A stretch of DNA of 64,000 nt from an uncultured Gemmatimonadales bacterium (GTDB taxonomy: Bacteria; Gemmatimonadota; Gemmatimonadetes; Longimicrobiales; Gaopeijiaceae): NCBI GenBank assembly GCA_963809895.1, contig CAWELD010000003.1:128001-192000 (forward strand), written 5' to 3'. Made by a program: the position numbers and the translations under genes. This document shows positions 48,383-64,000 of this stretch, in pieces (position 1 is the first letter of the stretch; each line of letters starts with the position of its first letter). Below the pieces are notes generated by a model, which was not told the origin of the DNA, ran no database searches, and was given only the letters and a program-made list of their open reading frames with translations.

Positions 48383-49023
48383 AGGAGCGCCAGCGCCACG
48401 CCGAAGGTGACGTGGTCCAGGAGCGTATCCTCTCCCCCCTCGGAGCCGGCCAGGAGGCCGCTGATCACGGGGAGCCGCCGATAGGGGGCGAAGCGTCCCA
48501 GCAGACCCCGCATTCCGCCCCAGGGTGACAGCGCGTACTCGGCGGTGCCGTAGAGGAGTCCCCGGATCACCGGAGCGCCGGGCACCCTGGGCTCCACCAC
48601 CGCGCCGTAGAGGAGGCCCCGGGCCGTGCCTGCCACCAGACGTTCCGGGAGATCGCCGTCGAGCGCCGGCAGCCGTGGCTCTCCCCGGAGGAGGGGCGCC
48701 AGGACCTCGCGGGCCAGCGCCGCCGCGCCACCGGCGAGACCAGCGCGCAGAAGGCGCTCCACCGGAGGACGACCGCGTCCGGGCCACACCCGCAGCACGC
48801 GGGCCAGAAGTGTGCCCGCTCCGGCCGCCAGCGCGAGCTCCAGACCCCCGCCCTCGTCATCCCCTGGCCCCTTCCGCTCGGGTTGGGCATCCTTGTGCCT
48901 CCGGCGGGGGGATTCCTCCCGGCGCCGGGACGCCAGGGAGCGCAACGGAGCTGCCGGGCCCCGGATCCTGGCGGATTCGAGCGCGTATCCCAGGCGATAC
49001 CAGATGTCGGTCGATGAGGCCAT
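48334..49023 (-). CDS. Hypothetical membrane protein
   Basis: MASSTDIWYRLGYALE...GLLYG..GLLYG..HVTFGVAL; converges on and overlaps the GT 3' end. Confidence 0.65.
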   Translation of the reverse strand: MASSTDIWYRLGYALESARIRGPAAPLRSLASRRREESPRRRHKDAQPERKGPGDDEGGGLELALAAGAGTLLARVLRVWPGRGRPPVERLLRAGLAGGAAALAREVLAPLLRGEPRLPALDGDLPERLVAGTARGLLYGAVVEPRVPGAPVIRGLLYGTAEYALSPWGGMRGLLGRFAPYRRLPVISGLLAGSEGGEDTLLDHVTFGVALALLYGDDELRIGIGEDTE

Positions 49024-49066
49024 GACCCTCGCGCCGGGTGGGCGTGGCAGGGAAGGAGTGTCTACG

Positions 49067-52000
49067 GTGGCGTGCATGCGGTTCGTTGACAAGGCGTGCC
49101 GGACGGCGGTGCGCTGCGCCCCGGGGTGCAGCGGGACCCTCGCCCTGATCGCGTTGATCCTCGTGGTGTCGGTGCGCCCCCTCTCCGCGCAGGTGCCTCC
49201 CGACGAGGATTGGCGATCGCTGGAGACCCCGCACTTTCGCGTCACCTTCCCGGCGCGGCTGGAGGGGCTGGCCCGGCGTGCCGGGGCCGTGGCCGAGGAC
49301 GCCCGAGTCAGGCTGGCCCAGGCCTTTCTCGGGTTCCCCGACGACCGGGTGGAGCTCCTGCTCACCGACCACGTGGACGCTTCCAACGGCTTCGCCAACG
49401 TGGCGCCGTACCGCAGGGTCACCATCTACGCCCGTCCTCCCGTAGACGGCTTCGCCCTGTCCTATTTCGACGACTGGGTGGATCTGGTGGTGACCCACGA
49501 GTTGGCGCACATCGTGCACCTCGACGTGACCGGGGGGCTGGGACGTATCCTGCGGTCCGTCTTCGGACGGGTTCCGTCGCCGTGGCCCTTCTTTCCCGAG
49601 CTGGCGAGCCCGCGCTGGGTGGTCGAGGGCCTGGCGGTCTGGTACGAGTCCGACCTCACGTCGGCAGGACGCCTCCACGGCACCTACTTCGACATGATGG
49701 TGCGCACGGCGGCGCTCGAGGGCCGCCTGGAGAGCATCGACCAGGCCTCCGGGGAGTCCCCGGTCTGGCCTTCGGGAGAGCGCCCCTACGTCTACGGCTC
49801 CGAGTTCTTCCGGTGGCTCCTGGATCGCTACGGGGCCGATCGCATGGCGGACTTCGTCGAGGCGGTGGGGTCGCAGTGGATTCCCTACCGCATGAACGCC
49901 GCGGCCCGCACGGCGTTCGGCGTGAGCTTCAGCGAGGCCTGGAACGTCTGGCGCGAGGAGACCACGACCCGGGCGCTGGCGCTGGCGAAGCAGGTGGATG
50001 AGCACGCCCCCAACCCACCTCCGGAAGCCCTCACCACGCATGCCCGCCAGGCGCTCTACGCCAAGGTGGGGCCCCGGGGACAGGTGGCCTATGCCCGCGC
50101 CGACGGCCACGGGGATCCCGAGATCCGCGTGCGGTCGTCGCAGGCCGGCGCCGGCGCCGGGGCAGGGGCTGCCGAGCGTCGCATCCGCACCAACGGGCTG
50201 GCGCATTTCGACTGGATCCCCGACGGCTCGCTGGTGGTGAGCCAGTACGAGCTCGAGGATCCGTATCGCACCTACAAGGACCTCTACCGGATCTATCCCG
50301 GTGGGGCCAGCGAGCGCCTCACGCGTGGGGCGCGTCTGGACCAGCCCGCCGTCTTTCCGGGAGGGGAAGAGGCGTGGGCCGTCCAGACCGTGGGCGGCGG
50401 CACGCGACTCGTGTCCGTCGATCTCGTGACGGGCGAGGTCCGGCAGCTTCCGGCCCTCCCGGAGGGCGCCAACTGGTCGTTCCCTGCGCCCTCGCCCGAC
50501 GGCCGCCTGGTCGCGGCCATCCGGTGGCGGCTCGGACAGTGGCCCGACCTGGTGCTCCTGGACGGCGACGACGGCCATCTGGTGGAGGCCGTGACCCGCG
50601 ATGCGGCGCTGGAGCTCGCGCCCACCTGGTCGCCCGACGGCACGCTGCTCTGGATCTCGGACCGCTCGGGGGTGCCCGACGTGTACGCCAGGGATCCGGC
50701 GTCGGCATCCGGGAGCCTCCGCCAGGTGACCGCGGTGGCCACCGGGCTCGGGTTCCCCACGGTGGATCCCGACGGCCGTTGGATCTACGCGTCGCAATAC
50801 CACGCCGACGGTTGGGACCTGGTGCGGCTGCCGTACGATCCCGATTCGTGGATCGCACCCGGCGCGCCGGCCTCCCGCTACGCACGGGCCGGGGGCGCGC
50901 CGCAGGGGCGGTCGATACCCGCCTTCAGCGGCGGGGAGGTGACGCCGTATCACCCCTGGTCCACGTTGCGCCCCCGGTACTGGGAGCCGCTCGTCCTGCC
51001 GGCCATCCATGCCACCAACCGAGAGGTCCTGGGCCCGTTCATCGGAGCCACCACCACGGCCGAGGACCTGGTGGGGCGCCACGCCTTCGCCGCCAGCGCG
51101 GCCCTCTCTACCACGGACGCCGCCTTCGACGGCCGCCTCTCGTACGTGTATCGCGGCCTGGGGTCTCCGCTGGTCACGCTGTCGGTGGACCAGGAATGGG
51201 ATGCCTCGGGTCCTCTCCGGGCGCGACAGTCCGAAGACGCCCCGGTCGATCTCCTCTACATCCGGGAACGACAGCGACGCGCCTCACTGGACCTGACCTT
51301 CCTGCGCTCGACCTGGCGGCGGGCATCGGCACTGGCGGTGGGTGGAGGGATGGTATGGGAGGACCGCACCCTCCTGGACGAGACCCTGCAGCGCAGCCCG
51401 GACTACGCGCTGTCCCGTCCGTCGGCCCGCCTCGCCGACGTGCGCGCCACGCTGAGCACGAGCACCGTGCGGTCGCACGCCCTCTCCATCAGCCCCGAGG
51501 ACGGGGTGAGCGCCTTCGTGCGGCTGCGCGCCCGCAAGGAGGTCGGGGTCGCCGATTCGCTGGTGGGCAGGGAGGGGTGGGACCGGAGCTACCATGAAGC
51601 CCGCGGCCGGATGCGCTGGTACACCTCCTTCGCGGGACCGGGCTTCGCCGATCACGTGCTGGCCATCCAGCTGGCGGCCGGTGCGGCCCGGGGGCCGGGC
51701 GCCGATGCCTTCCACTTCGAGGTCGGAGGGGCGGCGGGTGCCCCGGAGCCCCTCACGGGCTTCTCGCTCTTCGGCGGGGAGTCGCTCCTCTTTCCGGTGC
51801 GAGGCTACGCCCGCGGCGACCGCTTCGGACGAAACGCCTGGGCGGCCAGTGCCGAGTGGCGCTTTCCCATCGCCCTGGTGAACCGGGGCCCGGGCCTCTT
51901 CCCCCTGCATCTCGACCGGTTGCACGGCGCCGCTTTCGTGGATGCCGGTGATGCCTGGGGGCCCGATCTACAGCTTCCGGGGTACCAATCACCGAGGCAA

Positions 52001-52147
52001 TCCACCCTGGTCGGGGTGGGGGGCGAGCTTCGGGCCGAGCTTCTGGCCTTCTTCACCGTGCCGGTCACCCTGCGGATCGGCGTGGGCGCACCTCTGGTCG
52101 AGCGGACGCGCCCCACGGCCTACCTGCGGTTCGGCGCGGCGTTCTGA
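49067..52147 (+). CDS. Outer-membrane protein: zincin-like domain + TolB/PD40 propeller + BamA/TamA-like barrel
   Basis: Signal peptide, THELAH...WVVEGLA, SPDG repeats, PVRGY, terminal Phe; start 49067 or 49076. Confidence 0.88.
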   Translation: MACMRFVDKACRTAVRCAPGCSGTLALIALILVVSVRPLSAQVPPDEDWRSLETPHFRVTFPARLEGLARRAGAVAEDARVRLAQAFLGFPDDRVELLLTDHVDASNGFANVAPYRRVTIYARPPVDGFALSYFDDWVDLVVTHELAHIVHLDVTGGLGRILRSVFGRVPSPWPFFPELASPRWVVEGLAVWYESDLTSAGRLHGTYFDMMVRTAALEGRLESIDQASGESPVWPSGERPYVYGSEFFRWLLDRYGADRMADFVEAVGSQWIPYRMNAAARTAFGVSFSEAWNVWREETTTRALALAKQVDEHAPNPPPEALTTHARQALYAKVGPRGQVAYARADGHGDPEIRVRSSQAGAGAGAGAAERRIRTNGLAHFDWIPDGSLVVSQYELEDPYRTYKDLYRIYPGGASERLTRGARLDQPAVFPGGEEAWAVQTVGGGTRLVSVDLVTGEVRQLPALPEGANWSFPAPSPDGRLVAAIRWRLGQWPDLVLLDGDDGHLVEAVTRDAALELAPTWSPDGTLLWISDRSGVPDVYARDPASASGSLRQVTAVATGLGFPTVDPDGRWIYASQYHADGWDLVRLPYDPDSWIAPGAPASRYARAGGAPQGRSIPAFSGGEVTPYHPWSTLRPRYWEPLVLPAIHATNREVLGPFIGATTTAEDLVGRHAFAASAALSTTDAAFDGRLSYVYRGLGSPLVTLSVDQEWDASGPLRARQSEDAPVDLLYIRERQRRASLDLTFLRSTWRRASALAVGGGMVWEDRTLLDETLQRSPDYALSRPSARLADVRATLSTSTVRSHALSISPEDGVSAFVRLRARKEVGVADSLVGREGWDRSYHEARGRMRWYTSFAGPGFADHVLAIQLAAGAARGPGADAFHFEVGGAAGAPEPLTGFSLFGGESLLFPVRGYARGDRFGRNAWAASAEWRFPIALVNRGPGLFPLHLDRLHGAAFVDAGDAWGPDLQLPGYQSPRQSTLVGVGGELRAELLAFFTVPVTLRIGVGAPLVERTRPTAYLRFGAAF

Positions 52148-52320: not shown

Positions 52321-52368
52321 CCACAAGATCTAGTGCCCCTATTATGGTCCCGCCCCAAGAACTTGTGG
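52321..52368 (+). promoter_or_regulatory. Tandem NrdR boxes
   Basis: CCACAAGATCTAGTGC (52321) and CCCCAAGAACTTGTGG (52353), 32 bp apart, fit acaCwAtATaTwGtg; degenerate third copy at 52258. Confidence 0.85.
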
Positions 52369-52482
52369 TGCCCTCGAGGACTTTCCACAGGACTTTCCGC
52401 GGCGGAAGCTGTCTTCCGCCGCTTTTCAACGGAGTGTCCCCAGCCTTTCCACCGGGTTTTCCACATTGCCGGAGTGTCTCTG

Positions 52483-55041
52483 ATGCCGTCTGAGTCCCGC
52501 TCGCTGCCGCCGTTCCCCCCCGAGCCCTTCCTGTTCGATGATCGCATTCCCGACGACCTGCCAGACGCGGGTCTGACGGAGAACGCCCGCATCGTCCTGG
52601 CGAAGCGCTACCTCAAGAAGGACGAGGAGGGGAATCCGGTGGAGGAACCGGAGGTGATGTTCTGGCGGGTGGCCAGGGTCATCGCCGATGCGGATCGGGC
52701 CTACGGGGCGTCGGAGGCCGCCGTGGAAGAGGTGGCGCGTCAGTTCTACGGGCTCATGACGTCGGGCACCTTCGAACCCAACTCGCCGACCCTCATGAAC
52801 GCGGGGCGGCCGCTGGGTCAGCTGTCGGCGTGCTTCGTCCTGCCGGTGGACGACGCCCTCTCCAACGGTCGCTCGGGAATCTACGACACCCTCAAGGCCA
52901 TGGCGCTGGTGCATCAGTCCGGCGGCGGCACGGGCTTCTCCTTCTCCCGGCTGCGTCCCGAGGGCGACACGGTGCGCTCCACCATGGGTGTGGCGTCGGG
53001 ACCGGTGTCGTTCATGAGGCTCTACGACGCCTCCACCGAGGTGGTGAAGCAGGGCGGTACCCGCCGGGGCGCCAACATGGGCATCCTGCGGGTGGACCAT
53101 CCGGACATCCGGCGCTTCATCACCTGCAAGGACGACACCTCGCAGGTGACGAACTTCAACATCTCGGTGGCCATGACCGACCGCTTCATGCAGGCGGTCC
53201 AGGACGGGACCGACTACGACCTGCTGAGCCCGCGCAGCGGTGAGGTCGTCGGCCAGGAGAACGCCCGGGAGATCTTCGACCTCATCGTCCACGGAGCCTG
53301 GAAGACCGGCGAGCCCGGCACCTTCTTCATCGACCGGGCCAACGAGTACAACCCGGTCCCGGCGCTGGGAAGCTACGAGGCCACCAATCCCTGTGGCGAA
53401 CAGCCGCTCCTGGCCTACGACGTGTGCAATCTGGGCAGCGTCAACGTGGGGCGTTTCGTGAAGCTGGACGCCCCGTCCGACCTGCCCGCCGAAGAGCGCA
53501 TCGACTGGGAGGAGCTGCGCCGCGTGGTGCACCTGGCGACGCATTTCCTGGACAACGTCATCGACGCCAACCGCTATCCGCTGGAGGAGATCCACCAGCT
53601 CGCCCACACGATCCGCCGGATCGGCCTGGGCATCATGGGCTGGGCCGACATGCTCGTCCGCCTGGGCATCTCCTACAGCAGCGAAGAAGGCGTCGACATG
53701 GGCCGCAAGGTCATGGCCTTCATCAACGAGGAGTCCCGCATCGCCAGCGAGAAGCTGGCCGAGACGCGCGGGGTCTTCCCGGCGTGGGAGGCCTCGATCT
53801 GGGGGCCCGACGACACCTGCGCCCGTCGGTCCGACGGCACTCGGGTGCGCCCGATGCGTCGCATGAGGAACTGCAACCTCACTACCGTGGCACCCACCGG
53901 CACCATCTCCATCTTCGCCGGCTGCTCCGGAGGGATCGAGCCGCTCTTCGCCGTGGCGTTCATGCGCAACCAGGCGGGCTCGCTCATGCCCGACGTCAAT
54001 CCGGACTTCGTGCGCATGGCCAAGGAGCAGGGCTGGTACTCGGAGGCGCTCATGGAGCGTATCGCCGAGGAGGGCCACATCCACTTCGACGCGGTGCCCG
54101 AGGAAGTGCAGCGGGTCTTCGTCACCGCGCACGACATCACGCCCGAGTGGCACGTGCGCATGCAAGCGGCTTTCCAGGAGCACGTGGACTCGGCCATCTC
54201 CAAGACGACGAACTTCGCGCAGGAAGCCACCGAAGACGACGTCCGGGCCATCTACGAGCTCGCGTTCGAGCTGGGCTGCAAGGGCGTGACGGTCTACCGC
54301 GACGGCTCCCGGCCCATGCAGGTGCTCTCCACGGGCAAGACCGGAAAGTCCGAGGTTACCGCCGAGGCGCAGGCCGAAGCCGCCGAGCTCAGCGGCAAGC
54401 TGGCCGAGGTGGAGCAGCTTCTGGCCGATTCCCGCGAGGAGGCGCACCGCCTGCGCGTCGAGCTGTCCGAGATGAGCGCCACGCTCGAAGACCGCGACGT
54501 CACCGCCGGCGCGGGCCGCCACAAGCGGCAGCGCCCGTCCATGCTCCGCGGGCGCACGGTCAAGATGAACTCGCCGCTGGGCGACCTCTACGTCACGGTC
54601 AACGAAGACGAGAACGGCCGGCCCTTCGAGGTGTTCTGCACGCTGGGCAAGGCGGGCGGCGCGGCCATGGCCGACGCCGAGGCCATCGGCCGACTGGTGT
54701 CGCTGGGACTGCGGTCCGGGATCCCCATCATCTCCATCAAGGACCAGCTCCGGGGCATCTCCTGCGACCGCGCGGTGGGCGTGGGCCCCAACAAGGTCCT
54801 GTCGGCCCCCGACGCCATCGGCCAGGCGCTGGAGCGCTATCTGGAGGAGAAGGAAGGCGTCCAGGAAGCGCTGCCCCTGACCGCGCCTCTCGCCAGTGGC
54901 GGGGCCCAGGCTCAGGCCAGCGCTGCTACCTCGCGGCCCGAGAGCTTCTTCGGCTCGTGCCCCGACTGCGGCGCCGGTCAGCTCTCGTACGAAGAGGGCT
55001 GCGTGAAGTGCCACGTGTGCGGCTACAGCGAGTGCGGCTGA
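52483..55041 (+). CDS. nrdJ: Class II (adenosylcobalamin-dependent) ribonucleotide reductase
   Basis: PNSPTLMNAG, LSACFV, TNPCGEQ, CNLGS, APTGTIS, KGVTVYR, TSCPD-like domain, C-terminal Zn ribbon. Confidence 0.97.
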   Translation: MPSESRSLPPFPPEPFLFDDRIPDDLPDAGLTENARIVLAKRYLKKDEEGNPVEEPEVMFWRVARVIADADRAYGASEAAVEEVARQFYGLMTSGTFEPNSPTLMNAGRPLGQLSACFVLPVDDALSNGRSGIYDTLKAMALVHQSGGGTGFSFSRLRPEGDTVRSTMGVASGPVSFMRLYDASTEVVKQGGTRRGANMGILRVDHPDIRRFITCKDDTSQVTNFNISVAMTDRFMQAVQDGTDYDLLSPRSGEVVGQENAREIFDLIVHGAWKTGEPGTFFIDRANEYNPVPALGSYEATNPCGEQPLLAYDVCNLGSVNVGRFVKLDAPSDLPAEERIDWEELRRVVHLATHFLDNVIDANRYPLEEIHQLAHTIRRIGLGIMGWADMLVRLGISYSSEEGVDMGRKVMAFINEESRIASEKLAETRGVFPAWEASIWGPDDTCARRSDGTRVRPMRRMRNCNLTTVAPTGTISIFAGCSGGIEPLFAVAFMRNQAGSLMPDVNPDFVRMAKEQGWYSEALMERIAEEGHIHFDAVPEEVQRVFVTAHDITPEWHVRMQAAFQEHVDSAISKTTNFAQEATEDDVRAIYELAFELGCKGVTVYRDGSRPMQVLSTGKTGKSEVTAEAQAEAAELSGKLAEVEQLLADSREEAHRLRVELSEMSATLEDRDVTAGAGRHKRQRPSMLRGRTVKMNSPLGDLYVTVNEDENGRPFEVFCTLGKAGGAAMADAEAIGRLVSLGLRSGIPIISIKDQLRGISCDRAVGVGPNKVLSAPDAIGQALERYLEEKEGVQEALPLTAPLASGGAQAQASAATSRPESFFGSCPDCGAGQLSYEEGCVKCHVCGYSECG

Positions 55042-57336: not shown

Positions 57337-57366
57337 ATAAGTTGGCCAATTTATCAATTCCATAAA
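57337..57366. promoter_or_regulatory. LysR-type binding site(s)
   Basis: TTTAT-N7-ATAAA (57350-57366, contains T-N11-A) and ATAAgTTGGCCAAtTTAT in an AT-rich divergent intergenic region. Confidence 0.7.
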
Positions 57367-58292
57367 TGGATCCTATGGAAACCGCGGGCCCGGAACTCCC
57401 CTACCTCGAAGTCTTCCGGGCCGTGTGCCACGAGGGAGGATTCACCGCCGCGGCCCGGCGTCTGGGATGTAGCCAGCCGGCGGTGTCGTACCAGATCCGC
57501 AAGCTGGAGGAGATCGTGGGCCTCGAGCTGGTGGAACGGGACGGTCGCCGCCTGGTGCTGACACCGGCCGGACGGCGATTCCGGGTGCTGGCCGACGACG
57601 TCTTCGCCGAGCTCGCCAGGGTGCGGCGTGAGTGCGTTGCGGGACGACGCCTGGAACCGCTCCGCTTGGGCTCGGTGAGCGGGTTCGGGCGGTATGTGGT
57701 GATGCCGGCACTCCATCGACTTCGAGCCGAGGAGGAGGGCGATGGGCCCGAGGTCCGCCTGCAGTACGAGGCCGCCGACGTCCTCCTCGAGCGTCTGGAA
57801 GAAGGCGCGTACGAAGGCGCATTCGTCTACAAGCGAAGGATCACCAGCGGCGTGAGCTTCCGGCGCGTGTACGACGAGGAACTGGTCCTCGTCGCCAGTC
57901 GGGAACGAGCGGTGGAGGTCCGAGCGGGCGGTCTCGACCGCGTGGCGACGTTCGAGGCGGCGCCCTTCGTCACCTACGAGGAGTGCGACTACGTGTTCGG
58001 CCGCTGGTTCGACGAGACCTTCGGCGTCCAGCCGTCGCGGATCCTGAGCCGCTCCCACTTCACCGAGTTGGAGGAAGTCCTGGACTTCGTGTCCGCGGGC
58101 GCCGGGCTGTCGGTGGTGCCGAGGGATTCTGCCGAGGCCTGGTGTGCGCGGGACGAGGTCGAGATCCTCTACGCGGGTTCCGGGAATCCCTGCCTCAACC
58201 GGGTCTTTCTCGCCACGCGGCCGGGCTCCGAGGTGCGGCCGCTGCTCCGCCGTCTCGTGGAGTTGCTCGGAAGCGGACCGCGTCCAGGCTGA
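57366..58292 (+). CDS. LysR-family transcriptional regulator
   Basis: FTAAARRLGCSQPAVSYQIRKLE, LTPAG. Confidence 0.95.
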   Translation: MDPMETAGPELPYLEVFRAVCHEGGFTAAARRLGCSQPAVSYQIRKLEEIVGLELVERDGRRLVLTPAGRRFRVLADDVFAELARVRRECVAGRRLEPLRLGSVSGFGRYVVMPALHRLRAEEEGDGPEVRLQYEAADVLLERLEEGAYEGAFVYKRRITSGVSFRRVYDEELVLVASRERAVEVRAGGLDRVATFEAAPFVTYEECDYVFGRWFDETFGVQPSRILSRSHFTELEEVLDFVSAGAGLSVVPRDSAEAWCARDEVEILYAGSGNPCLNRVFLATRPGSEVRPLLRRLVELLGSGPRPG

Positions 58293-58370: not shown

Positions 58371-59798
58371 GTGCCCGCAGCCCCGATCCTGCCTCGTCGC
58401 GAAGAGCTGACTCCCGTGCTGGAACGGGTGATGGCGGACGCGCTCCGGTATCTTTCGGACCTCGACGAGCGGCCCGTCCTCGACCCCGCCGCCGGCGAGG
58501 TCATGCGGACTTTCCGTCGTCCGTTGCCCGCAGACGGCGTGGGCGCGGCCGAGGCGCTGCGGGAGCTCCTCGAGAGAGGCCTCGACGCCACCGCCGCCAC
58601 CTCCGGGCCGCGCTTCTTCCACTGGGTCACGGGGGGCACGACTCCCGCGGCGTTGGGCGCGGATTGGGTCACCGGCGTTCTGGATCAGCAGGGCTATGCC
58701 TGGTACGGGTCACCCCTGGCCGTGGAGCTGGAGGTGTTGTCGCTGGATTGGCTCAAGGAGCTGTTCGGCCTCCCCGCGGCCTGGACGGGCATCACCACGA
58801 CCGGTGCCAGCATGGCGAACTTCGTGGGCCTGGGAGCCGCTCGGCAGTGGTGGGGGCACCGACAAGGGAGTGACGTGGCGCAGGATGGACTCACCGGCCT
58901 GCCTGCCATGCCCGTGTTCTGTGGTGGCTACATCCACGCCAGTGCGGTGAAGGTGCTGGCGCTGCTGGGCACCGGCCGGTCCGGGGTGCGGCGACTCGTG
59001 CGCGACGACGTCGGGAGGATCGATCTCGCCGCCGTCGAGGCCGAGTTGAAGGCCCTGGACGGCTCGCCGGCCATCCTCGTCGCGGGGGCCGGCGAGGTCA
59101 ACGCCGGCGAGTTCGATCCCATCGACGCCATGGCCGACCTCGCCGAGGAGTACGGCGCGTGGTTGCACGTGGACGGCGCCTTCGGACTCTTCGCCGCCCT
59201 CTCGCCGCGTACCGCCCACCTCGTGAAGGGAGTCGAGCGAGCGCACTCCGTCACGGTCGACGGCCACAAGTGGTTGAACGTGCCCTACGATTGCGGGTTC
59301 GCCTTCGTGCACCACCGGCGCTGGATGGCCGAGACGTTCGCCTACGACGCCGAGTACCTCTTCGATCCCTCCGACCCGCATCCCGTCATGGGAGGGCTGG
59401 GGCCCGAAAGCTCACGCAGGGCTCGGTCGCTGGCGGTGTGGGCGACCCTGCGAGCCTACGGGCGCGAAGGCTACCGGAGCATGGTGGAGGATCACCTGGA
59501 TCTGGCCCGGGACCTCGCGGAGCTGGTCGATGCGGCGCCGGAGCTCGAGCGCCTGGCCGACGTCCCCCTCAACATCGTGTGCTTCCGCTTCAACCCCGGC
59601 ACCGTGCCCGACGACGAGCTGGATGCGCTGAACCGCGCGCTGGGGCAGCGGATCCTCGACGATGGTCGGGTCTTCGCCGGAACCACCCGCTACGCCGGGC
59701 GGGTGGCGCTGCGCCCCTGCATCGTGAATTGGCGGACGCGAGCGGACGACGTGGCCTTCTTCGTCGAGGTCGTGCGGGAGCTCGCCGCCGGGCTGTAA
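58371..59798 (+). CDS. Group II PLP-dependent (aromatic amino acid-type) decarboxylase
   Basis: PRFFHWV, WLHVDGAFG, DGHKWLNVPYDCG, SRRAR. Confidence 0.93.
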   Translation: MPAAPILPRREELTPVLERVMADALRYLSDLDERPVLDPAAGEVMRTFRRPLPADGVGAAEALRELLERGLDATAATSGPRFFHWVTGGTTPAALGADWVTGVLDQQGYAWYGSPLAVELEVLSLDWLKELFGLPAAWTGITTTGASMANFVGLGAARQWWGHRQGSDVAQDGLTGLPAMPVFCGGYIHASAVKVLALLGTGRSGVRRLVRDDVGRIDLAAVEAELKALDGSPAILVAGAGEVNAGEFDPIDAMADLAEEYGAWLHVDGAFGLFAALSPRTAHLVKGVERAHSVTVDGHKWLNVPYDCGFAFVHHRRWMAETFAYDAEYLFDPSDPHPVMGGLGPESSRRARSLAVWATLRAYGREGYRSMVEDHLDLARDLAELVDAAPELERLADVPLNIVCFRFNPGTVPDDELDALNRALGQRILDDGRVFAGTTRYAGRVALRPCIVNWRTRADDVAFFVEVVRELAAGL

Positions 59799-59863: not shown

Positions 59864-59901
59864 GTCAGGCCCTGGAACCCTCACCCTGACCGGAGGCAGC
59901 C

Positions 59902-61230
59902 ATGCCCGACGACCACGACATCGCGACGCTTCAGGACCTGGAGTGCTGCCCGAAGCTCGCCAAGGTGCCCACCTGCGACGTCCTCGACTTCCGCTACCGG
60001 CTTCCGTGGCGGCGGCAGGAGGGCCGTGTGGACGTGATCCTCCACTTCCGCCTGGAGCGATGCTCGGGACCCCTGGCGCTGGGGGACCTGGCGTACAGCA
60101 CCACGCTGTTCCCGGGCGAGCGCGTGCGCCTGTTCACCAGCGACCGGCACACGCGTTGGACCTACGATTCCGAGACGGAGCTGGCGTACCGCCACGAGAC
60201 CACCTCGGAGGAATCCTTCTACACCTTCGGCATGGCCCGCGCCATGAGCGACCTCTCCATCAGCGAGTCGGGGAGCTCGTCGAGCAGCCACGACGAGGAC
60301 TGGGCCTCGGGTGGCGGAGGCGCGTCGTTCAGCTTCCTCGGCATCATCAACATCGGTGGCGGAGGTGGAGGCGGAAGCTACGACGCCGATTCCAGCAGCC
60401 AGTTCGCCCGCAACCTGTCGCGCCACGCCGAGTCCTCGTCGAGCTACGTGGCCGCGGGCGTCCGCGCTCAGAGCACCACGTCGGTGGGCGAGGTTCAGCA
60501 ACGCAGCCACGCGGAAGGCGAATCGGAGTCCCACCTGGAGTCCGCGTCGCGGGTCTTCAGCAATCCCAACCGCTGCCACGCCGTCACCTACCTGTTCTAC
60601 AAGCTCATCAAGCAGCAGACCATCCGCTTCAGACTGGTGGCCATCGAGCGCGTGTTGGCCGATCCCTCCGCTCCCACGGCGCCGGATCGCACGCTCAAGC
60701 CCGACGTCGCAGGTGCCGTGGCGGTCCGTCCCCAGGCCGTGCTCGCCACCGCCAAGGATCGCGTGGAGGTGGAGCGGGTGGCCCGGGTGGCCGCGGCCGA
60801 GCGTCGCCAGGCGAGCCTGGGCCTGACCAGCGATGCCGTCGCGTTCGCCGGGGCGTCGCTGCGAGCCAACGCCTTTGCCGGTGAGCCGGCATCGGCGGCC
60901 GCGCGGGCCAAGGCCCTCGAGGCGGTGGACAAGGAGCTCGCCAAGGCCGGCCTGATCGACCGCGAAACCGGCGAGCCCACCGAGAAGATCATCGCCGACC
61001 TGTCGTGGGAGCGGGAGGAATGGCTCCCCACGCCGGGGCTCCTGGTAAAGGGGTGTCTGGACGCGTGCGGCACGTGCGAGCCGGCGCTGAAGAAGCAGAT
61101 CGAGCAGGAGCTGGAGCATCAGCGGCTCGAGAACGAGCTGCTCAAGCGCCAGATCGAGCTGCTGGACCAGGCCCAGGAGTATCGTTGCTGCCCCTCCGAC
61201 GAGGAGGAGGACACCGACGGCGATCACTGA
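59902..61230 (+). CDS. Hypothetical Cys-rich protein with long Ser/Gly-rich hairpin-like core (candidate beta-pore former)
   Basis: GGAGG SD and strongly coding composition; function not recognised. Confidence 0.85.
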   Translation: MPDDHDIATLQDLECCPKLAKVPTCDVLDFRYRLPWRRQEGRVDVILHFRLERCSGPLALGDLAYSTTLFPGERVRLFTSDRHTRWTYDSETELAYRHETTSEESFYTFGMARAMSDLSISESGSSSSSHDEDWASGGGGASFSFLGIINIGGGGGGGSYDADSSSQFARNLSRHAESSSSYVAAGVRAQSTTSVGEVQQRSHAEGESESHLESASRVFSNPNRCHAVTYLFYKLIKQQTIRFRLVAIERVLADPSAPTAPDRTLKPDVAGAVAVRPQAVLATAKDRVEVERVARVAAAERRQASLGLTSDAVAFAGASLRANAFAGEPASAAARAKALEAVDKELAKAGLIDRETGEPTEKIIADLSWEREEWLPTPGLLVKGCLDACGTCEPALKKQIEQELEHQRLENELLKRQIELLDQAQEYRCCPSDEEEDTDGDH

Positions 61231-61340: not shown

Positions 61341-63560
61341 TCAGGCACCACCTCCGCCACCGCCGCGCCCGCGCCCCGGCGCTCCGGGACAGGGTCGGGT
61401 CAGCATGAACGCTGCCACGTCCGAGGCGTCCAATCCCGACAGGCGGTTGTAGCCGTCCACGGTCAACGCGCGCACGTGCAGGCGCTCGGAGAAGGCCCCC
61501 TGGTCACACCCGCCCAGCAACGTCAGGGGGTCGAGGCCCGCTTTGGTGAAGGTGCAGGTCGAGCTCCGCGTGAAGCCGTTCGCGGCGGCGGTCGTGACCG
61601 GCCCGTCCGCGTTGCCCGACGGAACCGGTGTCGACACTCCCCGCTCGGTGCGGAAGCGGAAGTGCGCCAGGCCTCCGGGACGGCCCGCGTCGAAGGCCAG
61701 GGCCACCGTGGGTGCCGGCCCGGTGAGCGTGACCACACCGCACGCCGGATCCACACCGATCCCGGTGCCCGAAACCGGCTGGACCTCGCCGCCGCAGCGG
61801 GCGTTGTCCACGTGCAGGACCATGCGGAACGCCACCGTCTTTCCGGCCTCGGTGATCCGGTGATAGGGATCGGCCACCGCGGTCAGCACCGGGTCGGTGC
61901 CGAAGGGGGCCTCGTTGGTGGCGTACCGCAACGTGATCCCCTCGTCCTCCCACGCCACGCGGGCTCCGGAATCGTCGAAGAGCTCGAGTTTGAGCTCGTA
62001 CTTCCCGGCCCTGGGATCGGCCAGCCCACACGAGGGGCGGGGTCCGTCGGGCCACGGCGGCGCCGAGGTCTCCAGGTGCGCGCTGGCCAGATCCTCGCGC
62101 TCGTCGGCCACCAGCCACTCGATGCCCCCGGTGGGGGGCTCCTTGGGACGGATCTGGAAGCGCCCGGCGTTGGCGCCCGCCGGCTCCGGGCCCATGACCG
62201 CCACCGGTGCCGTGCCGTCGGGCATGGTGTAGTGACGGATGACCTGCCGGCTCAGGGGCGTCCAGTCGGATTCGGTGCTCCCCAGGGGGCGCACGGACCA
62301 CAGGTAATGGTGGATCCCGTCGGCCGCCAACGCGGTGCGCCCGAACCAGACCCGCGGCTCCAGCTTGCCGCCGAAGGCGAAGCGCGCACTGCCCGATGCG
62401 GCGTAGGCGAATCCCTCTTCCGCCTTACCTTCGTCGGCTCCCGCGGCGCTCGTCAGGATCTCCCCGACGCTCACCGTGCGGCCCACCGACAGCACCCAGA
62501 CCTGCTTGCCGTCGAGATCCGGCTCGTCGCTGCAGCCGGGCACCCGGCTGTCGGAGACCCTCAGCACCACCTCCGAGCCGCATTCGTAGTCCCAGTGCGT
62601 CCAGCAGGGAAGCGGAGGCGCGTACACGGTCTCCCATCCGGCGCCGAAATCGTACTCGACACGGAAGTAGAGGTCCGGCTTGTCGCCGTCGCAGTCGTAG
62701 GGGAGGAGGAGCTGGAAGCGCCCGTTGGCGTCGGTGGTGACCACCGCCACCTCGTCGCACCGGTAGCGCCACCAACTGGGCCAGAAGCACAGATAGGGCA
62801 GCAGGAGGCGCCAGTTGTCCACCAGCGCGCGGCGAACGGCCGGCGTCGCGGAGGTGCGCAACACCGTCTGGAACTCCATGGGCAGCGCCGTGGACGCCAT
62901 CTGCGAGCGGCGCTCGAGGTCGAAACGGAAGAGCGGTCGATCGAAGGGCGCGGGATCCGGACCAGGCCCTGGAGGCAGGGGCGGCTCGGGAGGAAGCGGG
63001 CCGATGGGGGCGGGATCCGGCCGCGGTTCCGGCGGGAAGGGAAGGGGGATGGGCCGCAGCAGATCGTCGCGCAGCTTGAGGATGTCGCGGTCGGGAAGCT
63101 CCAGGATCCAGCGCGGGACTCGATCCACCTCGCAGATGCGGACCCGCGCTCCGCACACCCCGCGCTGGTCCGACGCGCGGATCACGCGGCCCTGCACGAG
63201 ACACAGGCAGAACGGCCAACCGTCGAGGATGCTCCCCGGAATCTCCACCTTCGTCGTGAGATCGCCCGCGATGCCTCCGCGGAGAACGGGCTCGAAGGCT
63301 CCCAGCGCCTGCAGTCGCGACGGTGCGGGCGCATCGTCCACGTCGGTGAGCCCCTTCGAGGCGGGGACCAGAAACACCCGGCTTCTGGCGACGTCGCCGG
63401 GCGACATCGACAGCGTCAGCTTTCCCGACTTGACGTCCCCGCGCTCGACGAGGTTCCCCTGTTTGTCGTAGACGAAGGCATGCAGGGACTCGTCGAAGTG
63501 GGGTCTGGCCTTGGTGGTGACCTCCAGGGTCACGTTGTCGCCGGTCTTTCGTCTGGCCAT
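61341..63560 (-). CDS. Hypothetical 739-aa Cys/Pro-rich multi-beta-sandwich protein (transthyretin/carboxypeptidase-regulatory-like module)
   Basis: GGAGG SD; VQGRV...GARVRICEVD, TTDANGRF, KPDLYFRV; Pro-rich insert; no signal peptide. Confidence 0.85.
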   Translation of the reverse strand: MARRKTGDNVTLEVTTKARPHFDESLHAFVYDKQGNLVERGDVKSGKLTLSMSPGDVARSRVFLVPASKGLTDVDDAPAPSRLQALGAFEPVLRGGIAGDLTTKVEIPGSILDGWPFCLCLVQGRVIRASDQRGVCGARVRICEVDRVPRWILELPDRDILKLRDDLLRPIPLPFPPEPRPDPAPIGPLPPEPPLPPGPGPDPAPFDRPLFRFDLERRSQMASTALPMEFQTVLRTSATPAVRRALVDNWRLLLPYLCFWPSWWRYRCDEVAVVTTDANGRFQLLLPYDCDGDKPDLYFRVEYDFGAGWETVYAPPLPCWTHWDYECGSEVVLRVSDSRVPGCSDEPDLDGKQVWVLSVGRTVSVGEILTSAAGADEGKAEEGFAYAASGSARFAFGGKLEPRVWFGRTALAADGIHHYLWSVRPLGSTESDWTPLSRQVIRHYTMPDGTAPVAVMGPEPAGANAGRFQIRPKEPPTGGIEWLVADEREDLASAHLETSAPPWPDGPRPSCGLADPRAGKYELKLELFDDSGARVAWEDEGITLRYATNEAPFGTDPVLTAVADPYHRITEAGKTVAFRMVLHVDNARCGGEVQPVSGTGIGVDPACGVVTLTGPAPTVALAFDAGRPGGLAHFRFRTERGVSTPVPSGNADGPVTTAAANGFTRSSTCTFTKAGLDPLTLLGGCDQGAFSERLHVRALTVDGYNRLSGLDASDVAAFMLTRPCPGAPGRGRGGGGGGA

Positions 63561-63879: not shown

Positions 63880-64000
63880 ATGACCTCCCTCGCCATTCAC
63901 CTGTTCGGGGGCGTCCGGGTCCTGCTCGACGGTGAGCCGCTCGGACCGTTTCCCACTCGTTGGTCCGCAGGGCTCCTGGGCTACCTGGCCCTTCACCGCC
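63880..64000 (+). CDS. SARP/AfsR/BTAD-type transcriptional activator (N-terminal fragment, truncated by window end)
   Basis: MTSLAIHLFGGVRVLLDGEPLGPFPTRWSAGLLGYLALHR matches the typical L-x-I-x-L-F-G...LL-x-YL-x-L start; absent from the ORF track. Confidence 0.75.
   Translation, partial: MTSLAIHLFGGVRVLLDGEPLGPFPTRWSAGLLGYLALHR

Follow-up and report, generated by a model that had tools for sequence, protein, structure and literature searches.

A large, unnamed family of bacterial proteins that is likely to form long-stem beta-pores

We report the computational analysis of a 442-aa protein (P0001) encoded in a 64,000-nucleotide stretch of DNA, hereafter the window, and suggest that it represents what is likely an undescribed family of long-stem beta-pores. 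Taken at the level of sequence data, we regard as established the family itself, the fixed length of a large insertion, the centring of a hydrophobic tip within it, the antiparallel register that runs through it and the pairing of the gene with a neighbour. It is probable, in our judgement, that the protein is a soluble monomer which stores its stem as helices, oligomerises and zips the two arms of the insertion into a long, membrane-inserting barrel. The exact register that is predicted (i+j = 292/294) makes this reading directly testable.

Results

The gene and its product

The protein is encoded by a single open frame, with GGAGG (59892-59896) ahead of its ATG, and the gene is present in one copy in a host genome that is 95% complete. 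Its third-position G+C is 0.90, against 0.88-0.92 in the neighbouring genes. A frame on the opposite strand across the gene was rejected as a shadow of the real gene, and a search for sigma-70 promoter and terminator patterns found none. The features are as follows.

59902..61230, + strand: gene for the 442-aa protein; single open frame, single copy in the genome
59944..59976, + strand: N-terminal C15-C16-P...C25 motif; C15/C16 covary with C25 (z 3.7, 3.3)
59974..60108, + strand: extra strand (residues 25-38) and long strand 1 (41-69), from the model; antiparallel covariation on diagonal 79
60109..60144, + strand: (L/F)PGE turn and strand 2 (70-81), from the model; pairs with strand 3 on diagonals 292/294
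60145..60543, + strand: insertion 82-214, the predicted barrel stem; helices in the model, covaries as a single antiparallel hairpin
60301..60381, + strand: Gly-rich hydrophobic tip (134-160) with a turn at 146-148; predicted membrane-inserting hairpin, from the sequence pattern
60544..60660, + strand: strand 3 (215-220), NxNxC turn (221-225) and long strand 4 (226-253), from the model and covariation
60661..61005, + strand: variable helical region (254-368), the equivalent of the aerolysin variable loop, from conservation and two models
61006..61077, + strand: strand 5, LPTPG and CxxxCxxC; C392 covaries with C225; diagonal 614 with strand 4; z 5.5
61081..61194, + strand: long C-terminal helix (predicted coiled coil) and YRCCP, from conservation and the model
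61341..63560, - strand: convergent partner gene, 739 aa, Cys/Trp/Pro-rich, without a family name; homologues adjoin family genes in other genomes
63880..64000, + strand: first part of a short SARP/BTAD-type regulator, oriented divergently to the partner and extending beyond the window end

The 442-aa frame and all of the motifs quoted in the original prediction, which was made from the sequence alone, were recovered by a frame check and motif search: YSTTLFPGE at residue 65, the Gly-flanked tip at 134, NPNRCHAVTYLFY at 221, LPTPG at 375, GCLDACGTCEP at 384 and CCP at 15 and 429. Since they are conserved at 90-100% at most positions in 120 aligned sequences, these motifs are not due to chance. 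The Ser/Glu/Thr-rich segment that was also proposed is real, these residues making up 39% of positions 84-220 (Ser 23 and Glu 9, with Thr at only 6; Gly 12) and 10-24% of the flanking blocks 1-60, 219-260, 261-370 and 371-442, with 30% in the overlapping block 61-90; it is, though, mostly Ser, and its length is 147 residues rather than about 130. The claimed lack of a Sec signal extends to the close family: by a simple hydropathy heuristic (not SignalP), none of 120 close members has a signal-like N-terminus, that is, a mean hydropathy of 2.0 over 11 residues within the first 40.

Family size and distribution

The description of the protein as an orphan holds for annotation only. It matches no named family in Pfam, NCBIfam, PADLOC or PHROGs (a PADLOC search of eight proteins gave no match), yet has at least 1,937 homologues amongst 7,996 scored candidates, spread over many phyla, with source names that include Gammaproteobacteria, Deltaproteobacteria, Anaerolineae, Planctomycetota, Vicinamibacterales, Ignavibacteria and KSB1. 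The best 120 homologues are 58-100% identical to it, and 800 representatives match it at the 50% level. Judged by these sequences, the family is large, unnamed and bacterial. Searches of PDB sequences with the protein and with a 150-sequence profile revealed no solved relative; antibody matches (E >= 0.38) were set aside, as they reflect Ser/Gly composition.

Relatives were sought in viral contigs, plasmids and phages and none was found; a Yasminevirus protein (BFVD A0A5K0U6Q4) is a clear homologue (structural match E 3.6e-17, identity 27%), and the Asn-rich distant relatives P0157, P0178, P0182 and P0256 look similar to it. A survey of the phylum found a family match in 11 of 301 genomes, eight of them at E < 1e-8 and two full-length. 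With presence in 3 of 41 close relatives and, within the genus, in 2 of 19 other genomes, the distribution is patchy. In the literature searched, which covered openly accessible papers, we found no account of the family, a weak negative since a family that lacks a name is difficult to look up.

An antiparallel ladder runs through the insertion

The PGE and NPN motifs are spaced 147 residues apart. The two boundary motifs were both present in 245 of 361 sequences (116 fragments or motif variants were dropped), and in 224 of these the insertion measures 146-147 residues; its full range, 130-151, also holds in relatives of 600-1,340 aa. Dereplication at 60% left 41 sequences, and in 29 of them the 9-mer of highest hydrophobicity falls no more than five residues from the centre of the insertion, where chance would place it about 9% of the time in each; the 12 in which it is off centre count against a pore. 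The residue patterns within the insertion are in conflict. Polar/non-polar alternation of the membrane-strand type is found at residues 134-146 (p = 0.001) and, weakly, at 84-101 (p 0.048) and 195-213 (p 0.029), whereas two observations count against a pore: there is no alternation at 148-161 (p = 0.8) and the hydrophobic pattern of 162-178 is helical, not alternating (p = 0.001).

Covariation in an alignment of 370 sequences (Neff 106) resolves this conflict. Ten of the top 60 covarying pairs within residues 40-255 have i+j = 292 or 294; of the six segments between 45 and 144, five have 292 as their best diagonal and the remaining one has 294. For residues 84-132 these diagonals rank first and second of 98 (z 6.7 and 4.2) with odd and helix-type offsets near background, even offsets exceed odd ones at 30 of 49 residues (Wilcoxon p 5e-4), and the ladder signal is present at 34 of the 49, against a background of 26%. 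Within 102-118, which is modelled as helix, it is present at 13 of 17 residues (background 23%), with a borderline helical modulation (p = 0.05) that counts against a pore. When 119 newly fetched sequences were taken alone, 292 was the top diagonal of 50 for 102-132, and also the top for 102-118 and for 119-132; the segment 84-101 did not replicate. After removal of near-duplicates (223 sequences left), columns were shuffled within clades at two cuts: the 292 ladder observed in 84-132 was reached by 0 of 40 shuffles at either cut, and that in 102-118 alone by 2-6 of 40, much of the signal lying between clades. A DNA or RNA hairpin was rejected as the source of the ladder, since none of 12 short inverted repeats has the matching symmetry.

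A single register continues from strands 2 and 3 up to the tip, pairing a coil-modelled with a helix-modelled segment. An even-offset ladder that passes through coil and helix alike is, as far as covariation can tell, the pattern of strands, and its simplest reading would be a second, extended state in which the insertion forms one hairpin with 65-73 residues per arm. The registers 292 and 294, two apart, are compatible with a barrel but no proof of one. Proline is rare in the arms (0.35% per residue, against 4.4% in 254-368), and conserved aromatics are placed along them. At the textbook values of 3.3 Å per residue and a tilt of 30-45 degrees, arms of this length would give a stem of 152-209 Å, or about 150-210 Å, a predicted 1.5 to 2 times the length of the anthrax toxin pore.

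Predicted fold

An AlphaFold2 model of the protein, built with 150 sequences, has a mean pLDDT of 81.7. Strands are predicted at 25-38, 41-69, 74-81, 215-220, 226-253 and 369-390, and helices at 103-116 and 162-190 lie either side of a low-confidence stretch, 120-145. The variable region is helical and is followed by a long C-terminal helix (394-428), in agreement with the coiled coil originally proposed there. The variable region contains proline and, in a distant relative, is much shorter (about 40 residues). The strand order is repeated in the model (pLDDT 69.7) of a module that belongs to a subtilase fusion and is 21% identical, and in both it is the order of the aerolysin core as described in PMC3110756 and PMC5654971; antiparallel covariation between strands 1 and 4, 2 and 3, and 4 and 5 accompanies this predicted arrangement. 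Both the fold and the helical storage form are predictions of the model. Because AlphaFold places helices in the arms where covariation places an antiparallel ladder, we suggest a helix-to-strand switch; the extended hairpin of the original prediction is supported by the ladder, and the part-helical arms of the predicted monomer were unforeseen.

Structural searches gave leads rather than an assignment. Foldseek, which had been proposed as a check, returned nothing at E <= 0.001 for either model, though a good many top ranks go to pore formers, including the pores of perforin-2 and pleurotolysin B at a non-significant E of 0.035-0.34. Realignment of the 654 Foldseek-ranked chains gave 23 entries, 16 of them aerolysin-type toxins with Z 2.3-4.3 over 104-168 residues (rmsd 5-11) in this Foldseek-preselected set, colinear with about residues 14-392 of the model; the top entry (Z 4.5) is an unrelated phosphatase complex. 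An independent wide structural search found T-fold enzymes best (Z 5.9, 100 residues, rmsd 3.6, 6% identity), in the range below Z 8 that the tool calls a common arrangement, and no pore former among the 50 matches listed. Folding a compact relative, the source of the second model, did not sharpen the match: the same search with it gave generic helical pairs only. The nearest named atlas clusters are aerolysin and ETX_MTX2, whose scores of 0.77-0.82 fall under the atlas line of 0.9 and are leads only.

Profile searches were negative. Pfam Aerolysin, ETX_MTX2 and Toxin_10 have no hit at E <= 1 in the protein and 41 further family members, and hhalign comparison with a profile of 11 Toxin_10 sequences gave a probability of 0.25%, within the shuffles and hence noise; its other values were 5.1% to Toxin_10 and 0.08% to one Mtx sequence. 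One of four sub-regions compared, 50-90, landed on the equivalent Toxin_10 motif, and there is no PA-type entry among the sequence hits or the listed fold hits. With profile comparison at noise level and structural Z of only 2-4, the data fall short of placing the protein in the aerolysin families. On its models, it nevertheless looks, and likely works, like an aerolysin-type protein. The original reading as a beta-barrel pore or tube is strengthened by the strand order in two models, the centred tip, the ladder and the nearest atlas clusters, but does not extend to membership of the aerolysin, ETX/MTX2 or PA families, given no Pfam or profile hit and an aerolysin-type structural Z of 2.3-4.3.

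Comparison with known pore formers and T-fold enzymes

Aerolysin-like beta-PFTs are defined in PMC5654971 by a ring oligomer with a double beta-barrel, and the same source describes CPE as keeping its stem loop as a helix. Further marks of the superfamily are membrane permeabilisation and an insertion loop in which polar residues alternate with non-polar ones. Like CPE, the 442-aa protein is predicted to store its stem in this way, but it differs from the aerolysin-type proteins (aerolysin, ETX/MTX2, parasporin-2, monalysin, CPE) in lacking sequence or profile homology, a receptor-binding domain and a signal peptide, in having a much longer insertion, with about 45 residues predicted as helix, and in adding an N-terminal strand, a C-terminal coiled coil and ten cysteines.

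The best pore-former superposition is with the Tpp/Toxin_10 proteins (BinA/BinB, Tpp35, Tpp78, Tpp80), namely Tpp80Aa1 (Z 4.3, 124 residues, rmsd 6.5). These share the PG turn before the insertion, the Asn after it and a central Gly-rich tip, and residues 64-76 outdo 30 of 30 shuffles in their alignment to the PG turn of BinA, although at a probability of 1.9%; the BinA insertion is about 72 residues, against 147 here. The Tpp architecture given in PMC9784298 is an N-terminal beta-trefoil lectin domain followed by the Toxin_10 domain, and in the 442-aa protein the model has no trefoil and Pfam no lectin or Toxin_10 hit.

A long extramembrane beta-barrel stem, a short hydrophobic tip and a separate partner, all predicted here, are shared with anthrax PA and binary toxin B, although the PA stem measures 105 Å (PMC6194281) against the predicted 150-210 Å. 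The conversion of helices to hairpins that we predict recalls MACPF/CDC proteins, whose helices unfurl into beta-hairpins according to the same paper; there, two helical bundles (TMH1, TMH2) become hairpins, whereas here there is one insertion with a tip, a second helical region that is variable, and an aerolysin-like rather than MACPF strand order. As for the T-fold (FolB, FolX, PTPS, uricase), whose enzymes carry pterin/purine-binding residues, about 100 residues of its base domain superpose at Z 4.7-5.9, but the overlap covers less than a quarter of the chain at 4-11% identity and has no counterpart of the insertion, tip or coiled coil.

Conserved cysteines

Each of the ten cysteines is 98-100% conserved in 120 close sequences. 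In 35 distant full-length relatives, the N-terminal CC is retained in 25, the CxxC in 21 and the C-terminal CC in 20. The covarying pairs, C225-C392 and C15/16-C25, may be structural disulfides or a metal site, which fit equally well; the proposed metal or redox gating of a pore finds no support, and nothing here points to gating.

The partner gene and the genomic neighbourhood

The convergent 739-aa gene is homologous (E about 1e-61) to genes that directly adjoin family members elsewhere. A partner profile matches at 17 of 81 loci, and at 11 of the 27 that are flanked on each side by no less than 2.5 kb, a count that is partly circular as 12 of the 13 profile sequences come from the same loci and some loci are near-duplicates; absence from the other 16 well-flanked loci counts against the reading that we favour. 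The surveys of the phylum and of 41 relatives are cleaner, independent tests. In the former, the partner occurs in 3 of 301 genomes, all within the eight that have a family match at E < 1e-8, and adjoins the family gene in G000 and G023, whereas G094 has the two on separate contigs; in the latter, partner and family gene occur in the same three relatives. The two genes are co-directional and nearly abutting in G303 and G310, and one family member begins with a fused N-terminal domain from a partner subtype. In some partners the N-terminal domain carries a DxDFND motif; a lectin-like reading of it gained only a weak DUF4114 score (E 0.01-0.025), below cut-off.

Several further arrangements were seen. 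P0098 (749 aa) joins a partner-type part to a family member that lacks its first 45 or so residues, and is either a real fusion or an assembly chimera. At L035:1350-3761, an 804-aa Cys-rich gene without a partner-profile match, perhaps a further partner type, stands upstream of the family gene and its DUF1360 and CC companions. At 8 of 81 loci (L005, L023, L025, L027, L030, L034, L035, L049), mostly with the partner, the family gene has near it both a DUF1360 gene and one for a small CC protein with an MSCCG-like start. Relatives of the short BTAD regulator are near the family gene in L001, L003 and L022, three of the 81 loci, so that the regulator recurs there besides the window.

Tail sheath and T4 gp19-like tube genes, behind a sigma-54 activator, adjoin the family gene at two of the 81 loci (L043:3226-5297 and L044:8191-10319), and a tube gene alone lies beside it at L101:10394-10915. 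For the host genome, which has no tail-tube gene, we rejected contractile injection systems as a means of delivery.

Within the window, the gene upstream (58371-59798, + strand) encodes a pyridoxal-dependent decarboxylase (Pfam E 8e-56) and is not a recurring neighbour. By eye, we take 57366-58292 to be a LysR-type regulator, 52333-55041 a class II ribonucleotide reductase and 48626-52147 a large outer-membrane protein with propeller repeats (all + strand).

Longer and divergent relatives

In G283 the module is fused behind a subtilase (Pfam S8, E 1e-37) in a 905-aa gene (L104:3711-6425); its insertion, shortened in both arms, measures 136 residues, and a self-activating pore is possible. Long forms of more than 900 and up to 1,660 aa (P0273, P0276, P0277, P0274, L032:4389-8417, L085, L087-L089) have the module, a conserved following region and then differing ends: a papain-like C70 domain, DUF2272, or a segment that carries an HExxH-like motif. 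Their layout looks like that of polymorphic toxins, and at L032 short and long forms stand in tandem. Two weak relatives (E about 1e-4; L092:595-2169 and L093:616-2073, in G054 and G004) seem to retain the boundary motifs around a shorter insertion without a hydrophobic tip, and are possibly a non-inserting form.

Discussion

In the mechanism that we favour, the five-strand body, predicted to be aerolysin-like, would form a ring, the 147-residue insertion would unfold from its stored helices into the stem of some 150-210 Å, and the Gly-rich hydrophobic tip would sit in the membrane. The paired cysteines would brace the body and the C-terminal helix rather than gate the pore. Oligomerisation, membrane insertion and the length of the stem are what we infer from the ladder, the tip and the arms.

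As to its role, we lean, tentatively and at somewhat less than even chances, towards a released weapon that gets to a membrane by passing through a thick outer layer, be it cell wall, S-layer, LPS or protist coat. The 739-aa neighbour would supply the binding function that the 442-aa protein lacks, the cassette would be under the control of the SARP-type regulator, and release would be by lysis or another route. The missing signal peptide and the missing tail-tube gene in the host genome leave the export route unexplained. We prefer a weapon to a role at the cell's own membrane because to reach the inner membrane from the cytoplasm requires no long stem.

That last point bears on an unlikely alternative, drawn by analogy with bacterial gasdermins, in which the same barrel would be a cytoplasmic, self-directed effector of death or lysis, switched on by a regulator or protease. 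The absence of signal peptides (120 of 120, by the hydropathy heuristic), the scattered, accessory-type occurrence (in the genus, 2 of 19 other genomes), the frequent adjacency of regulators (BTAD, sigma-54 activators, AraC), the subtilase fused in front in G283 and a calpain-type protease gene nearby at 2 of 81 loci would all suit such an effector. Gasdermin-protease systems, however, have a dedicated protease gene beside the pore gene, where the window has none beside the 442-aa gene; PADLOC matched none of the eight proteins, the neighbours are mostly housekeeping with no defence gene named among 98 scanned proteins, and a stem of 150-210 Å would be unneeded.

It is similarly improbable that the protein is a non-lytic conduit or tube that spans the cell's own periplasm or functions as a needle or a channel for cargo, perhaps together with contractile injection systems, the long forms passing their C-terminal enzymes through it. 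The nearly fixed, ruler-like arm length and the conserved aromatics along the arms would fit, as would the sheath and tube genes that adjoin the family gene in L043 and L044, the tube gene of G023 and the papain-like C70 or DUF2272 domains of long relatives. Against this, G000, G303 and G310 have no tail-tube gene, there is a single hydrophobic segment of membrane size, no match was found in phages, plasmids or viral contigs, and the short form has no cargo domain.

Least likely, and very doubtful, is a T-fold-like ring enzyme or scaffold that forms no pore, with a helical or soluble-fibre Ser-rich insertion and metal-binding cysteines, to which the top structural scores (FolX and FolB, Z 5.9 and 5.5 over about 100 residues), the confident AlphaFold helices of the arms and the helical pattern of 162-178 would lend themselves, but which accounts for less than a quarter of the protein at a Z in the common-arrangement range and conflicts with the residue-by-residue even-offset ladder across coil and helix and with the alternating, membrane-type strand at the centred tip.

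Returning to the weapon, we advance a wider and still more speculative proposal, which we think clearly less probable than not: that the family founds an undescribed superfamily combining an aerolysin-type ring with a MACPF-style switch and a barrel of about 20 nm, enough to span a cell wall or periplasm, in which the 440-aa forms use a separate binding partner and the 1,000-1,700-aa forms deliver swapped C-terminal enzymes through the same tube.

Conclusions

If the long-stem pore is borne out, it would be a new pore-forming family with a barrel much longer than the anthrax PA stem, would show that an aerolysin-type scaffold is able to store its stem as helices and would provide a route by which a soluble protein reaches a membrane beneath a thick envelope. 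A long, narrow barrel would also be of interest to the builders of nanopore sensors. The module, which has until now had neither a name nor a function, is found in thousands of environmental bacteria and in no fewer than one giant virus.
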